DNA of 64,000 nucleotides, taken from positions 118,413 to 182,412 of the forward strand of contig CAWGOW010000002.1 of NCBI GenBank assembly GCA_963824305.1, read 5' to 3'. A program made the translations under genes and the position numbers. Shown one piece after another: positions 50,753 through 64,000 of this stretch. The DNA comes from an uncultured Alphaproteobacteria bacterium (GTDB taxonomy: Bacteria; Pseudomonadota; Alphaproteobacteria; Rhizobiales; Xanthobacteraceae). The notes below the pieces were generated by a model, which saw nothing but the letters and a program-made list of their open reading frames with translations, ran no database searches and was not told where the DNA came from. Each line of letters begins with the position of its first letter. Positions within the stretch are counted from its first letter, which is position 1.

Positions 50753-50794
50753 TTGACTTGCCCCGGCACATTAGTCTACTTATGCAAGTAACAA
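50753..50794 (+). promoter_or_regulatory. Candidate promoter/operator: TTGACT-N14-AGTCTACTTATGCAAGTAACAA (contains the dyad TACTT-N4-AAGTA)
   Basis: This AT-rich 22-mer lies about 65 nt upstream of the crotonase start. It is 19/22 identical to copy 2 at 59618-59639 and has the same upstream TTGACT hexamer. Confidence 0.6.
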
Positions 50795-50858
50795 ATTGGG
50801 CTGCGACTGTCCGTCGAAACGCCCGAGAATTCATCGGCTGGGCGCCAAAGAGGTCGCG

Positions 50859-51632
50859 TTGGAGGAAATTCGAATCGATCGGCGCGGCAGCGTTGCCCAC
50901 GTCATTCTGGATCGGCCAGCCGTAAAGAATGCCGTGACGCACGCGATGTGGCGCGAATTGGCCGCGATCTTCGCTGGCTTCGCTGGCGATAAAGATGTCC
51001 GAGGGGTGGTCCTCAGGGGGGCGGGTAAAGACTTTTCTGTCGGCGCCGACATTTCCGAATTCGAAAAGATCAGAGACGACAAGCACCAGAGCGCGGCTTA
51101 CGAAGTTGCGGTCGACGCTTGCTCTGGGGCGATCGCCGCGCTTGGAAAGCCAGTCGTAGCGGCTATTTCCGCCTATTGTCTCGGCGGCGGCTGCCACCTC
51201 GCGCTCGCGTGCGATTTCCGCTTCGGTGATCGCAGCGCGACGATGGGCATTCCTTCGGCAAAGCTATCCATCGTGTACGGGGTTCATAGTGTGCAGCGCC
51301 TGTTGGCGATCACGGGCGTATCGAACGCGAAGCGCATTCTCTACTCGGCCGACAGTTATTCTGCCGAGCAGGCTAACTCGATGGGTCTGATCGACGAATT
51401 GCACCAAGACGCGAGCTTGGCCGCTGAGGTGTTTCTAGAGCGGCTGGGGGTAAACGCGCCTCTCTCGATTTCCGGCGCCAAATACATGCTGAACGGCCTT
51501 TCGATGGGAGCTGGCGCGCTCGATCTGGCGGCTGCGCAGCGGCTCATCGATGCCGCCTCCGACAGCGCCGATTTCAAGGAAGGCCGACGGGCGTTTGCTG
51601 AGAAGCGGTCACCACGGTTTCGCGGCGAATAA
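50859..51632 (+). CDS. Enoyl-CoA hydratase/isomerase-family protein (possibly a hydrolase-type member)
   Basis: Crotonase blocks (HVILDRPAVKNAV, GAGKDFSVGADI, AYCLGGGCHLALACD). The probable start is TTG 50859, which has AGAGG 6 nt upstream. The longest ORF starts at TTG 50796. Confidence 0.8.
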   Translation: MEEIRIDRRGSVAHVILDRPAVKNAVTHAMWRELAAIFAGFAGDKDVRGVVLRGAGKDFSVGADISEFEKIRDDKHQSAAYEVAVDACSGAIAALGKPVVAAISAYCLGGGCHLALACDFRFGDRSATMGIPSAKLSIVYGVHSVQRLLAITGVSNAKRILYSADSYSAEQANSMGLIDELHQDASLAAEVFLERLGVNAPLSISGAKYMLNGLSMGAGALDLAAAQRLIDAASDSADFKEGRRAFAEKRSPRFRGE

Positions 51633-51654
51633 GCACCAATTTTGGAGGGCACCG

Positions 51655-60986: not shown

Positions 60987-62543
60987 ATGGATCAGGAAAC
61001 AATCGCCAGAGGCTTGGCGCCGAAATCCCGCAAGCCGATCAGGTCGGGCTCCGAGTATATCGACAGCCTGAGACACCGGAATCTTAAGGTCTATCTGATG
61101 GGCGAAATGGTCGACGAGCCCGTCGATCATCCGATCATCAGGCCTTCGATCAACGCGGTCGCGCAGACCTACGACCTTGCAAACGAAAATCCGGAACTTG
61201 CATCTGCCGTGTCGCCCTTTACTGGTGAGCGCGTAAATCGGTTTCTTCACATCTCGGCGAGCCCTGCCGATCTCGTCATGCAGAACAAGATGCAACGGCG
61301 CTTGGGGCAGCTGACCGGCACATGTTTCCAGCGTTGCGTCGGCATGGATGCGCTCAACTCGCTGCATTCGGTCTCGTACGATTTGGATGAAAAGTTTGGG
61401 ACCGAGTACCATCGGCGCTTCACGCAATTCCTCACCCAGATGCAAAAGGCGAATTTTGTAATCGGCGGTGCAATGACCGACGTGAAGGGTGATCGCGGAA
61501 AATCGCCTTCGCAGCAGGCCGATCCGGACCTCTTTGTGCATGTCACCCGACGCACCGCAGATGGTGTCTTCATCAGCGGCGCCAAAGCGCATCAGACTGG
61601 CTGCCTGAATTCACACTGGTTGATCGTGATGCCGACGATGCGGTTGGAGACTGCAGACAAGAATTACGCGATCGTTGGCGCGATACCGGTTGATGCCGAA
61701 GGCATCACCTACATCTATGGCCGTCAATCCTGTGACACCCGCAGCGCCGAAGGCGGCGATATCGATGTCGGGAACGCGCAATTTTCGGGCCAAGAAGCGA
61801 TGATCATCTTCGAGGACGTCTTTATTCCGCGAGAGCTCGTCTTCCTCGACGGGGAGTACGAATTTGCAGCCACACTAGTCGAGCGATTTACATGCTATCA
61901 CCGCCGCAGCTACGTCTGCAAAACCGGCGTTGGCGATGTCCTGATCGGCGCCGCAGCCACCATCGCCGATTACAACGGTGTCGAGCGGGTCTCACATATC
62001 AAAGACAAGCTCGTCGAAATGACGCATCTCAACGAGACGATCTACGGCACCGGCATTGCCGCGAGCCATCAGGGCATGAAAATGAAATCGGGCGCGTACC
62101 TGCCCGACGAGATGCTAGCTAATGTTTGCAAGCACCATGTCACGCGCTTGCCTTACGAAATTGGCCGGTTGGCGCAGGATCTTGCCGGCGGCTTGATGGT
62201 TACGCTGCCATCCGAGCTGGAGCTGCGACACGAAACCGTAGGTCCGATGATCGAAAAATATCTCAAGGGGCGCCCCGAAGTCGCGACCGAAGACCGCATA
62301 CGCATTTTGCGTTTGGTGGAGAACATGACGCTGGGCAGAAACGCGGTAGGATATCTCACGGAGTCCATGCATGGCGCTGGATCTCCGCAAGCGCAACGGA
62401 TTCAGATCGCGCGCTCAATGCAAATCGAATTCAAGAAAGAGTTGGCGAAAACGTTGGCCGGTATCGCGGCCGCTTCGCGCGAAGAGATATCGGACGACCT
62501 CTCCATGTACATGACACGAGTATTCGCGCCCGTCCGCAATTGA
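60987..62543 (+). CDS. 4-hydroxybutyryl-CoA dehydratase/vinylacetyl-CoA delta-isomerase family protein (AbfD-like; HpaB-fold FAD/[4Fe-4S] enzyme)
   Basis: 518 aa. From memory it is collinear with Clostridium aminobutyricum AbfD (DHPIIRPSINAV, CFQRCVGMDA with C-x3-C, GAMTDVKGDR, YGRQSCDTR, YHRRSYVCKTGVGDV with His...Cys, HGAGSPQAQRI). Confidence 0.8.
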   Translation: MDQETIARGLAPKSRKPIRSGSEYIDSLRHRNLKVYLMGEMVDEPVDHPIIRPSINAVAQTYDLANENPELASAVSPFTGERVNRFLHISASPADLVMQNKMQRRLGQLTGTCFQRCVGMDALNSLHSVSYDLDEKFGTEYHRRFTQFLTQMQKANFVIGGAMTDVKGDRGKSPSQQADPDLFVHVTRRTADGVFISGAKAHQTGCLNSHWLIVMPTMRLETADKNYAIVGAIPVDAEGITYIYGRQSCDTRSAEGGDIDVGNAQFSGQEAMIIFEDVFIPRELVFLDGEYEFAATLVERFTCYHRRSYVCKTGVGDVLIGAAATIADYNGVERVSHIKDKLVEMTHLNETIYGTGIAASHQGMKMKSGAYLPDEMLANVCKHHVTRLPYEIGRLAQDLAGGLMVTLPSELELRHETVGPMIEKYLKGRPEVATEDRIRILRLVENMTLGRNAVGYLTESMHGAGSPQAQRIQIARSMQIEFKKELAKTLAGIAAASREEISDDLSMYMTRVFAPVRN

Positions 62544-62576
62544 CAATCGGAACGCGTTCTCGCAACGGTGTGGCTT

Positions 62577-63017
62577 ATGGCGATGACAATGAATGGTGAG
62601 ATCCAGCTCGCCGCGTCCAGGGAGGTCGTTTGGGCGAAGTTGAACGACCCCGATGTCCTGAAGGCTTGCATCCCCGGTTGCGAGGAGCTGGAGAAGACCG
62701 AAGATCAAGGCTTTCGTGCCGTCGCCAAGATGAAAGTCGGTCCGGTATCTGCGCGATTTCGCGGAAAGGTCACCCTGAGCGATCTCGATCCGCCAAACGG
62801 TTACAAGATTTCGGGAGAAGGCGAGGGTGGTGTGGCAGGCTTCGCAAAAGGCGGCGCCAAAGTCGATCTCGTCGACCGTCAGGAAGGAACGCTCCTGAGC
62901 TATCGGGTCGGTGCTCAGATTGGTGGTAAGCTCGCACAGTTGGGGCAGCGACTCATCAACGGCTCGGCCAAGAAGCTGGCCGACGAGTTTTTCGCGAATT
63001 TCGCGCGGGCGCTCTAA
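62577..63017 (+). CDS. CoxG-like SRPBCC-family protein
   Basis: About 146 aa (NGEIQLAASREVVWAKLNDPDVLKACIPGCEELEK...KVGPVSARFRGKVTLSD), typical of CoxG. Confidence 0.8.
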   Translation: MAMTMNGEIQLAASREVVWAKLNDPDVLKACIPGCEELEKTEDQGFRAVAKMKVGPVSARFRGKVTLSDLDPPNGYKISGEGEGGVAGFAKGGAKVDLVDRQEGTLLSYRVGAQIGGKLAQLGQRLINGSAKKLADEFFANFARAL

Positions 63018-64000
63018 TGGAAGGGGGCTTCGCACCGAGAGCGCCCTTCGGGTTGCTCTGGATGTGCGGCGTTTGTCTTCGACTTACGATCTTAGCGGTC
63101 CCCCCGGTGATCGCGATAATTCAACGAGATCTCAAACTGTCGGGTACGGAGATTGGACTCCTTTCGGGCATTCCTATCGCCGTATTCGCAATCTTCGCCG
63201 CACCGGGCGCGATCGTGGTCGCCCGAATGGGCGTGCGCGGCGCCCTAATAGGGGCGCTTGCCATCGCGGTGGCCGGAACACTGCTTCGCACGAGCGTTTC
63301 GAACGCGTGGCAACTGTATTTGACTAGTGCGTTGATGAGCGCCGGGGTCGCTATCATGCAGCCGGCGATGGCGGCCGCGGTGCGGGAGTGGACTCCGCAA
63401 AGATCGGCATTCGGAACAGCCGTCTACACCAATGGCTTGATCTTCGGCGAGATCATACCGGTCGCGACGATGCTTTCACTGGTTCTGCCGTATTACGGCG
63501 GAAATTGGCGGCCGGCTCTCGGCGTATGGGCATCGTTCCTGATCGTTACCGCCGTTGCGGTTGCGATGCTCGCTCACAAATCGGCAGATAGTGCCGTGGC
63601 GATGCGTACATCGCGTTGGCTTCCGCAATGGAACAGCCGACTTGGTTGGCGCATCGGCTTGACGTTGGGTAGCGTCACGAGCACCTATTTTTGCCTCAAC
63701 GGCTTCTTGCCCGCCTACTTGAGTGCGAACGATCGCCAAGAGTTCATCGGCCAAGCCTTGACGGCGTTGAACACCGGACAGTTGCCAGCATCGTTTCTCC
63801 TGCTGCTGCTGGCGGACAGGTTGCAAGGCAAACGTTGGCCGTATCTTGCCTTGGGAACGCTGTTCTGCGTCTGCGTGATTGGCATCATGTCGTCGGCGGG
63901 CATGTGGACCGTGTTCTGGGCTGGTCTGGCCGGGTTCTCTTGTGGCGCCGCGCTGCCGTTGGCATTGGCGCTCGCCCCGCTGCTTTGCGACAACTCGAAC
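63017..64000 (+). CDS. MFS transporter (CynX-like), 3'-truncated by the window end
   Basis: This ORF is not in the ORF track because no stop is reached. By my own translation, ATG 63017 (TAATG overlap with the coxG stop) opens 328 codons to nt 64000, with repeated TM segments (LLWMCGVCLRLTILAVPPVIAIIQRDLKLSGTEIGLLSGIP...). Confidence 0.7.
   Translation, partial: MEGGFAPRAPFGLLWMCGVCLRLTILAVPPVIAIIQRDLKLSGTEIGLLSGIPIAVFAIFAAPGAIVVARMGVRGALIGALAIAVAGTLLRTSVSNAWQLYLTSALMSAGVAIMQPAMAAAVREWTPQRSAFGTAVYTNGLIFGEIIPVATMLSLVLPYYGGNWRPALGVWASFLIVTAVAVAMLAHKSADSAVAMRTSRWLPQWNSRLGWRIGLTLGSVTSTYFCLNGFLPAYLSANDRQEFIGQALTALNTGQLPASFLLLLLADRLQGKRWPYLALGTLFCVCVIGIMSSAGMWTVFWAGLAGFSCGAALPLALALAPLLCDNSN

Follow-up and report, generated by a model that had tools for sequence, protein, structure and literature searches.

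One of the described systems nearest to the gene cluster treated here is HmfABCDE of Cupriavidus basilensis HMF14, which follows the Trudgill pathway of 2-furoyl-CoA and keeps the conserved gene order hmfA (large subunit, L), hmfB (medium subunit, M), hmfC (small subunit, S), hmfD (ligase) and hmfE (enoyl-CoA hydratase, ECH) (PMC3223595). AbfD, the 4-hydroxybutyryl-CoA dehydratase that is another component of the cluster, has been met in a different setting: its genes in Bradyrhizobium and Afipia have been read as evidence of the 3-hydroxypropionate/4-hydroxybutyrate (3HP/4HB) carbon-fixation cycle (PMC4195664), and metagenome surveys report the enzyme alongside Bradyrhizobium. Here we analyze a 64,000-nucleotide stretch of DNA, hereafter the window, from an uncultured alphaproteobacterium of the Xanthobacteraceae (GenBank assembly GCA_963824305.1, contig CAWGOW010000002.1, positions 118,413 to 182,412 of the forward strand). 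Its last part carries two operons (Table 1). The first encodes a crotonase-fold (ECH-like) protein, the M and S subunits of a molybdenum (Mo) hydroxylase, a metallo-beta-lactamase-fold (MBL) lactonase-like hydrolase, the L subunit, a protein of the short-chain dehydrogenase/reductase (SDR) fold and an AMP-forming acyl-CoA ligase; the second encodes a solute-binding protein (SBP), AbfD, CoxG and a transporter of the major facilitator superfamily (MFS). As in the hmf cluster, Pfam domains place all three Mo subunits next to an AMP-forming ligase and a crotonase-family gene.

We read the two operons, together with a tandem-HxlR regulator encoded between them, as one regulon for the CoA-dependent catabolism of a small cyclic carboxylate ending at 4-hydroxybutyryl-CoA, a tentative reading to which we give somewhat less than an even chance. 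For the substrate, a furan-type O-heterocycle with a five-membered ring is the likeliest candidate.

A conserved core with two alternative tails

An alignment of six MBL sequences, run against a single genome for each GTDB species, yielded 80 related loci, in which the window proteins were compared by tblastn; the presence or absence of a gene was judged within ~10 kb of the MBL gene. An alignment built from 16 distant representatives of the MBL protein proved too divergent for such a scan. The MBL, large subunit, SDR-like and ligase genes, which form the core of the cluster, occur together in 55 of the 80 loci. These come from Bradyrhizobium, Rhodopseudomonas, Rhodoblastus, Beijerinckiaceae, Pseudolabrys and other Xanthobacteraceae, from Afipia, Xanthobacter, Tistlia and Hyphomicrobiaceae, and from the betaproteobacterium Paucimonas, and the core set is also found on plasmids of Rhizobium, Sinorhizobium, Agrobacterium and Aminobacter. 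Orthologues of the large subunit with at least 88% identity are present in well over a hundred Bradyrhizobium protein clusters. A conjugative plasmid of B. elkanii USDA 31 carries the complete unit, ECH-M-S-MBL-L-SDR-ligase, regulator and SBP-AbfD(-CoxG), in intact form, and so does a 9.3-Mb Bradyrhizobium chromosome with wholly different flanks. The gene combination singled out in the initial annotation is thus conserved in relatives: it recurs in Bradyrhizobium, both on chromosomes and on plasmids, as well as in other Alpha- and Betaproteobacteria, and is by no means juxtaposed by chance.

What follows the core differs between lineages. The AbfD tail is present in 23 of the 55 core loci; in Pseudolabrys and other Xanthobacteraceae, abfD lies 38 nt after the ligase gene, in the same operon. 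Fourteen of the 55 carry instead some or all of an iron-type alcohol dehydrogenase (Fe-ADH), a small thioesterase and an aldehyde dehydrogenase, and in Afipia and Paucimonas these genes share one operon with core genes. The aldehyde dehydrogenase scores 722 bits against the succinate semialdehyde dehydrogenase (SSADH) model TIGR01780, whose cut-off is 646, and falls just short of the GabD equivalog cut-off. No core locus contains both tails (0/55). Where Fe-ADH, thioesterase and SSADH replace AbfD, the ligase and the SDR-like protein are kept, and mostly the ECH-like protein too. Two interchangeable tails are most simply accounted for if the core delivers 4-hydroxybutyryl-CoA, on which AbfD would act directly and the other tail by thioesterase, alcohol dehydrogenase and SSADH in turn. 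Crude open reading frame (ORF) clustering of the loci revealed no further recurrent cluster genes beyond transport components.

Soil bacteria carry the cluster in abundance, rhizobia and agrobacteria often on plasmids, so its substrate is probably a plant- or soil-derived compound.

A paralogous type of cluster was also encountered, in metagenome-assembled genomes of Xanthobacteraceae (loci L033, L038, L039, L046, L048, L051, L056-L058, L064, L070-L072 and L074). There, an SDR-like/MBL gene pair is divergent from the genes of a different M-S-L hydroxylase; identities to the window proteins are about 40% for the large subunit, 62% for the SDR-like protein and 60% for the MBL protein. AbfD is adjacent in two of the loci, and the type also has an acyl-CoA dehydrogenase, a TPR protein, a PadR regulator and a distant ligase.

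Non-canonical crotonase-fold and SDR-fold proteins

Canonical enoyl-CoA hydratases bear their two catalytic glutamates at the positions GGGxE and PE. The ECH-like protein of the cluster has the ECH_1 fold and neither glutamate: the first motif reads GGGCH, with His for Glu, and the second IP(S/A)A(K/R)L, in 33 of 33 orthologues, and its scores lie below the NCBIfam cut-offs. Judged by these residues it is not a standard enoyl-CoA hydratase, and it may act as a decarboxylase or in some other non-hydratase step. It is unlikely to be a final thioesterase, because the alternative tail has a thioesterase of its own and AbfD requires a CoA ester.

The active site of the SDR-like protein is likewise changed. 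HMMER alignment with Staphylococcus aureus FabG (3osu) puts Gly, Gly and Arg opposite the catalytic Ser138, Tyr151 and Lys155; across 44 orthologues the Tyr position is occupied by G, A, V or T, and the sequence GDSSR[VI]GE...AA[AS]R, including the Arg, is conserved. Both dinucleotide-binding motifs are kept, TGGGRDVG (Rossmann TGxxxGxG) and NNAG, and the sequence neighbors of the protein are ordinary FabG-type SDRs. Dienoyl-CoA reductases of the SDR family also lack the classical Tyr, for which reason we propose that the protein might carry out an atypical NAD(P)H-dependent ene-reduction of an acyl-CoA. In its Tyr-less SDR and its His-type crotonase, the cluster has two enzymes whose folds are familiar and whose active sites are non-canonical.

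These substitutions bear on a route put forward in the initial annotation, in which a lactone (or a Mo-oxidized lactol) would be opened to a 4-hydroxy acid, esterified with CoA and led through AbfD, the crotonase and the SDR to a 3-oxoacyl-CoA. Every fold that such a route requires is present, AbfD is genuine (see below), the MBL protein resembles lactonases acting on gamma-butyrolactone (GBL) and acyl-homoserine lactones (AHL), and a route with a lactol-oxidizing Mo dehydrogenase, a lactonase and an SDR is known for deoxyribose (PMC6365646). However, the two proteins placed at its end lack both Glu and the Ser/Tyr/Lys residues, respectively, in all orthologues. The ligase, ECH-like and SDR-like genes persist beside Fe-ADH, thioesterase and SSADH in lineages without AbfD, so they would have no role downstream of AbfD there, and the thioesterase of that tail implies that the intermediate is already a CoA ester. 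The sequence of steps from AbfD to a 3-oxoacyl-CoA is therefore weakened, and we consider it unlikely.

The molybdenum hydroxylase and the embedded lactonase-like protein

At 800 aa the large subunit is as long as its orthologues, 47 of 49 of which contain a PYRGVGR loop and the catalytic Glu motif GMGEGG. Its best match in the PDB is the quinoline 2-oxidoreductase subunit QorL (1t3q), at 556 bits, while HcrA of 4-hydroxybenzoyl-CoA reductase scores 272 bits. It does not conform to form I carbon monoxide dehydrogenase (CODH): PYRGVGR stands in place of the Cu-binding Cys loop AYxCSFR, and its NCBIfam scores, 479.9 and 596 bits, lie below the cut-offs of 991 and 950 bits. The best family scores are those of archaeal glyceraldehyde dehydrogenase and form-II CoxL, all sub-cut-off. 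With its best solved relative at only 556 bits and no NCBIfam cut-off reached, the subunit is tightly tied to no characterized enzyme, and in particular to no characterized hydroxylase. Regarding the fate of the electrons, CoxG has been described as a quinone shuttle to Mo-CODH (PMC12202499), a role that suggests that the hydroxylase works oxidatively into the quinone pool; by analogy, CoxG likely links the Mo enzyme to the quinone pool of the membrane.

The MBL gene sits between the small- and large-subunit genes and overlaps them by 4 nt and 8 nt, and this embedded S-MBL-L order is found in 42 of 48 loci. The metal ligands HxHxDH...H...D...H (H101, H103, D105, H106, H172, D194 and H238) are invariant in the orthologue alignment. 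The protein scores 131.8 bits against the NCBIfam AttM model, whose cut-off is 390, and about 100-108 bits against the AHL lactonases 9kho and 2r2d of the PDB. It belongs to a narrow and separate family, with 74 representatives at E<1e-30 among 1.8 billion. The earlier description of this protein as lactonase-like is borne out by the intact metal ligands and by a resemblance to AHL and gamma-butyrolactone lactonases at about 100-130 bits, and would fit a role in lactone opening.

Hydroxylation of a heteroaryl-CoA by a Mo enzyme followed by lactone opening has a precedent in the Trudgill pathway (PMC3223595), which supports our reading of a CoA-dependent route. The same precedent underlies the other suggestion of the initial annotation, a second, lactonase-assisted Trudgill pathway for 2-furoate (or thiophene- or pyrrole-2-carboxylate) with AbfD loosely associated. 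The acyl-CoA would be hydroxylated at C5, the resulting lactone, thiolactone or lactam hydrolyzed to 2-oxoglutaryl-CoA, and 2-oxoglutarate released. Xanthobacter and Phyllobacteriaceae, in both of which the cluster occurs, include known degraders of thiophene-2-carboxylate, among them Aquamicrobium. The core logic of ligase, Mo dehydrogenase and lactone opening fits hmfABCDE as well, where the opening is given as 'spontaneous or catalysed' (PMC3223595). On the other side, the gene order differs from the highly conserved one of hmfABCDE, a canonical hmf cluster already exists in B. japonicum (PMC3223595), 2-oxoglutarate as the end product explains neither an AbfD gene in the same operon nor the SSADH/Fe-ADH tail, and the SDR-like protein is left without a role. 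The chemical logic of this suggestion thus stands, the gene order and the tails do not follow from it, and we hold it to be quite unlikely as a whole.

The ligase finds its closest solved structures among feruloyl-CoA, fatty-acyl-CoA and malonyl-CoA synthetases (PDB 8wev, 261 bits; MatB, 243 bits), and the best PDB match of the SBP is 3i09 (433 bits), whose ligand is not known. The PDB matches of the SBP, the ligase and the ECH-like protein gave no clue to the substrate.

The AbfD-type dehydratase

AbfD of the window is 70.6% identical over 497 aa to the enzyme of Nitrosopumilus maritimus (6vjr, 802 bits) and matches that of Clostridium aminobutyricum (1u8v) at 591 bits. The segments CFQRC, YHRRSYVC, GQEA and TESMHG align with both structures and hold the [4Fe-4S] ligands (CxxxC, His and Cys) and the catalytic Glu; the CxxxC and YHRxSY..C motifs are found in all 25 AbfD proteins of the cluster. 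By its identity to 6vjr and its intact Fe-S ligands, the gene is confirmed at the level of sequence as an AbfD-type dehydratase, as annotated initially. In the window the enzyme would presumably run in the direction of dehydration only.

The operon context argues for a catabolic role of AbfD rather than for 3HP/4HB autotrophy, a point of relevance wherever AbfD serves to mark organisms as autotrophic. Should the proposed pathway hold, the oxygen-tolerant clade of bacterial AbfD, which is ~70% identical to the thaumarchaeal carbon-fixation enzyme, would gain a physiological role.

On a plasmid of Sphingomonas paeninsulae, an AbfD 66% identical to that of the window is encoded under an AraC regulator, together with a family III CoA-transferase, alpha/beta hydrolases and a wax-ester synthase-like gene, and no Mo enzyme is present there. 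This locus is a second, different context for an aerobic bacterial AbfD.

A tandem-HxlR regulator and shared operator-like sites

Between the two operons, convergent with the ligase gene and divergent from the SBP gene, lies a gene for a tandem-HxlR protein that was absent from the initial annotation. Its orthologues have ~346 aa, which places the probable start near 59503. The regulator accompanies the cluster in 49 of the 55 loci, and its tandem architecture is conserved together with it. Behind each HxlR domain lies a Cys-rich stretch, CGCDSH...CSDC in one case and CGHD...CDRC in the other; by their sequence these look like small metal-binding or redox-sensing modules.

A 13-nt motif, AGTCTA[CG]TTA[TC]GC (AGTCTASTTAYGC), occurs at 50773, 59596 and 59618 and at no other site in the 64 kb. 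The three matches compare with 0.03 expected, and none of 100 shuffles reached three. The motif extends to ~20 nt with an inverted core, TTAC-N4-GTAA, which is found in both units of the repeat upstream of the SBP gene. The same relative positions recur in almost all Bradyrhizobium-type loci and across dozens of related genomes, and in Afipia-type loci, where the genes are rearranged, the motif precedes the Fe-ADH operon and the SBP operon. We take the conserved positions to be the phylogenetic footprint of a shared operator, and the tandem-HxlR protein is the obvious candidate to bind it and to regulate both operons. The co-regulation assumed in the initial annotation thus gains support from the DNA sequence, a shared and conserved motif being present only upstream of both operons.

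The most improbable of the readings considered makes the two operons independent neighbors, a generic aldehyde or N-heterocycle Mo hydroxylase beside a separate SBP-AbfD-CoxG unit for 4-hydroxybutyrate: the sub-cut-off family scores of the large subunit and the Sphingomonas AbfD that lives without any Mo enzyme speak for it, but the operons share an operator conserved across many genomes, AbfD lies inside the Mo-enzyme operon in other lineages, CoxG, a partner of Mo enzymes, sits in the AbfD operon, and the unit of ten genes moves as a whole from one set of flanks to another.

Proposed pathway

From the gene content, the conservation of the motif, the residue substitutions and the alternative tail modules observed, we infer in what order the steps proceed, that the Mo enzyme is specific for a CoA ester, what the SDR-like and ECH-like proteins do and what kind of compound the substrate is. 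The SBP, with the MFS transporter in the cluster of the window, would take up the acid, which the AMP-forming ligase would convert to its CoA thioester. The three-subunit Mo hydroxylase would then hydroxylate the ring carbon adjoining the heteroatom, its electrons passing to quinone with the aid of CoxG, and the hydroxylated product would tautomerize to a lactone. This lactone would be modified by the Tyr-less SDR-like protein, probably by reduction of an activated C=C bond, and the ring opened by the co-translated MBL lactonase. The His-type crotonase-fold protein would contribute a non-hydratase step, for example a decarboxylation, yielding 4-hydroxybutyryl-CoA. In Bradyrhizobium, AbfD would dehydrate this compound to crotonyl-CoA, which would enter general beta-oxidation; in Rhizobiaceae, Afipia and Paucimonas it would be de-esterified and oxidized via succinate semialdehyde to succinate.

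Several points weigh against this pathway. Because the loci were gathered via MBL homologues, the sample is biased toward clusters that contain an MBL gene, and clusters without one are invisible in it. Neither tail is found, in the available sequence, in 18 of the 55 core loci, at least one of which has a family III CoA-transferase after the SBP gene. Twelve core loci lack the ECH-like gene, whose protein may therefore be dispensable, and the SDR-like protein could be a non-catalytic subunit. Finally, AbfD has been reported somewhere in Afipia genomes (PMC4195664), and the mutual exclusion of the tails refers to the ~10-kb scope of the comparison.

By chemical reasoning only, the pathway can be drawn for furan-3-carboxylate (3-furoate) or a close beta-carboxy O-heterocycle, for which it would be a route unknown until now; we put this forward as a long shot. 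The ligase would form 3-furoyl-CoA, and the Mo enzyme would hydroxylate C2, which adjoins the ring oxygen and is the beta-carbon of the unsaturated thioester, giving 2-oxo-2,5-dihydrofuran-3-carbonyl-CoA. The Tyr-less SDR would reduce the doubly activated C=C bond to give 2-oxotetrahydrofuran-3-carbonyl-CoA. This alpha-substituted gamma-butyrolactone, a steric analogue of an acyl-homoserine lactone, would be opened by the MBL protein to (2-hydroxyethyl)malonyl-CoA, which the His-type crotonase would decarboxylate to 4-hydroxybutyryl-CoA and CO2, and AbfD or the thioesterase/ADH/SSADH tail would lead the product to central metabolism. Speculative as it is, such a scheme would be redox-neutral and would have a step for every conserved gene.

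Organization of the cluster

All 11 genes of the initial annotation were found where it had placed them, the ORF map and the Pfam domains agreeing in each case. The junctions between the genes of operon 1 measure +19, +4, -4, -8, -8 and +12 nt, in agreement with the tight spacing given before (-8 to +22, here -8 to +19). No cluster protein reaches an NCBIfam equivalog cut-off, no Rfam family was found in the 44-64 kb part of the window, and a scan for promoters and terminators gave a signal no higher than background. A hairpin with a T-rich tail is present at 60911-60929, inside the 79-nt gap between the SBP gene and abfD; from its sequence it could be a partial terminator that lifts SBP transcript levels. 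Regarding transport, the window has no cognate permease or ATPase of the ATP-binding cassette (ABC) type for the SBP, whereas the rhizobial and Afipia clusters carry a full ABC system. The MFS gene, which scores 108 bits against NCBIfam CynX, below the cut-off, is a lineage-specific addition found in just two related loci.

Table 1. Genes and putative operator sites of the cluster, in window coordinates
Feature	Position	Strand	Pfam domains or remarks
Crotonase-fold protein (ECH-like), 257 aa, TTG start	50859-51632	+	ECH_1 2.6e-45
CoxM/XdhB-like FAD-binding medium subunit, 287 aa	51652-52515	+	FAD_binding_5, CO_deh_flav_C
CoxS-like 2x[2Fe-2S] small subunit, 160 aa	52520-53002	+	Fer2_2, Fer2
MBL lactonase-like hydrolase, 253 aa	52999-53760	+	Lactamase_B
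Molybdopterin-binding large subunit, xanthine-dehydrogenase family, 800 aa	53753-56155	+	Ald_Xan_dh_C, MoCoBD_1, MoCoBD_2
SDR-fold protein, 249 aa	56148-56897	+	adh_short_C2
AMP-forming acyl-CoA ligase, class I adenylate-forming, 513 aa	56910-58451	+	AMP-binding, AMP-binding_C
Tandem HxlR regulator, maximal ORF 368 aa	58460-59566	-	HxlR, 2 stretches, 5.9e-36
Liv-type periplasmic SBP	59681-60907	+	Peripla_BP_6 2.3e-110
AbfD-type 4-hydroxybutyryl-CoA dehydratase / vinylacetyl-CoA isomerase, 518 aa	60987-62543	+	HpaB_N + HpaB_C
CoxG (SRPBCC)	62568-63017	+	COXG 1e-35
MFS transporter (CynX/NimT-like), cut by window end	63017-64000	+	MFS_1
Operator-like site 1 (AGTCTACTTATGCAAGTAAC)	50773-50792	+	67 nt upstream of first gene of operon 1; conserved position
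Operator-like sites 2 and 3	59596-59637	+	19-nt unit, direct repeat, 22-nt spacing; regulator/SBP intergenic region

Neighboring regions of the window

Directly upstream of the first operon is a separate unit (44972-50328, plus strand) with its own GntR/FCD regulator, an acyl-CoA dehydrogenase, a single-Glu crotonase-fold protein, a family III CoA-transferase and an MmgE/PrpD protein, which resembles units for the catabolism of C5-dicarboxylates of the itaconate/methylsuccinate type. It does not accompany the Mo-hydroxylase cluster in the other genomes compared. The block before it (35962-44810, minus strand) encodes two proteins of 710 aa, one like ADP-forming acyl-CoA synthetases and one with two family III CoA-transferase domains, as well as a second Liv-type SBP, an aldehyde dehydrogenase and, at 39137-39925, an SDR whose BadH-like SDSAR...YxxxK site is intact. 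At its start the window has a photosynthesis gene cluster (70-11075, plus strand), with a BchH/CobN-type Mg-chelatase truncated by the window edge, BchL, BchM, PucC/LhaA, the reaction-centre H chain PuhA, a rubrerythrin-like AcsF, DUF3623/PuhE and an aminotransferase-fold (ALA-synthase-like) gene; by these genes the DNA belongs to a photosynthetic Bradyrhizobium lineage. The ORFs at 70-6294, considered as a possible hmfABCDE, were rejected as photosynthesis genes; plasmid matches in M. radiotolerans, Azospirillum, Ralstonia, C. metallidurans and Roseivivax were examined in the same respect and are not hmf clusters.

Comparison with known systems

The literature on AbfD and on the degradation of heterocyclic carboxylates yielded no publication on the cluster, nor was an NCBIfam model or solved structure found for it. 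The statement of the initial annotation that no characterized cluster combines these parts thus holds for the literature and the curated families searched. If the proposed pathway is true, it would form a new branch among the few aerobic, CoA-dependent heterocycle pathways initiated by a Mo hydroxylase, joined to the 4-hydroxybutyryl-CoA node.

Reportedly, the isonicotinate pathway of Mycobacterium sp. INA1, as worked out by Kretzer, Frunzke and Andreesen in 1993, proceeds by Mo hydroxylation, CoA activation, NADPH-dependent ring reduction and hydrolytic opening. The logic of its steps is like that proposed here, while the substrate is an N-heterocycle and the end products are others; the likeness is one of chemistry. 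QorLMS (1t3q) shares the L/M/S architecture and supplies the best solved match of the large subunit. The relation is a distant one, however, and QorLMS acts on a free N-heterocycle, with no ligase, lactonase or AbfD in its context. In the oxidative deoxyribose pathway (PMC6365646), a Mo dehydrogenase, a lactonase and an SDR-fold enzyme also form a trio acting in consecutive steps. Its substrates, however, are free sugars, and neither its SDR nor its other enzymes are related to the ligase, AbfD and crotonase-fold proteins found here.

An analogous layout is seen on pRL8 of R. johnstonii 3841 (21.6-31.5 kb), where CoxG, an alpha/beta-hydrolase, CoxMSL and a HAAT-ABC system are induced in the pea rhizosphere. 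This cluster was rejected as the same system, its large subunit being 27% identical and an alpha/beta hydrolase standing instead of the MBL protein.

With BlcABC/AttKLM, the gamma-butyrolactone system of Agrobacterium, the cluster has in common an MBL lactonase, which here too would act on a gamma-lactone, and the rhizobial variant of the cluster continues, as Blc does, with the oxidation of 4-hydroxybutyrate and an SSADH. The MBL protein of the window nevertheless stays far below the AttM cut-off (131.8 against 390 bits), the proposed pathway depends on CoA and a Mo hydroxylase, and Bradyrhizobium has AbfD in place of the succinate semialdehyde route. AbfD itself is like the enzymes of C. aminobutyricum (1u8v) and N. 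maritimus (6vjr, 3HP/4HB cycle) in fold and in its Fe-S and catalytic motifs; unlike theirs, its gene belongs to an aerobic catabolic operon with a Mo hydroxylase and not to the fermentation of gamma-aminobutyrate (GABA) or to CO2 fixation.

HmfABCDE (PMC3223595) shares with the cluster and its proposed pathway an AMP-forming ligase, a three-subunit Mo dehydrogenase acting beside the ring heteroatom, a lactone intermediate, a crotonase-family protein and a host among the aerobic Proteobacteria. Compared by gene content and order, the two differ in that the window has the order ECH-M-S-MBL-L-SDR-ligase and adds the MBL protein, the Tyr-less SDR-like protein, CoxG, the tandem-HxlR regulator and AbfD (or, elsewhere, the SSADH tail), and the implied product is 2-oxoglutarate there and 4-hydroxybutyryl-CoA here.

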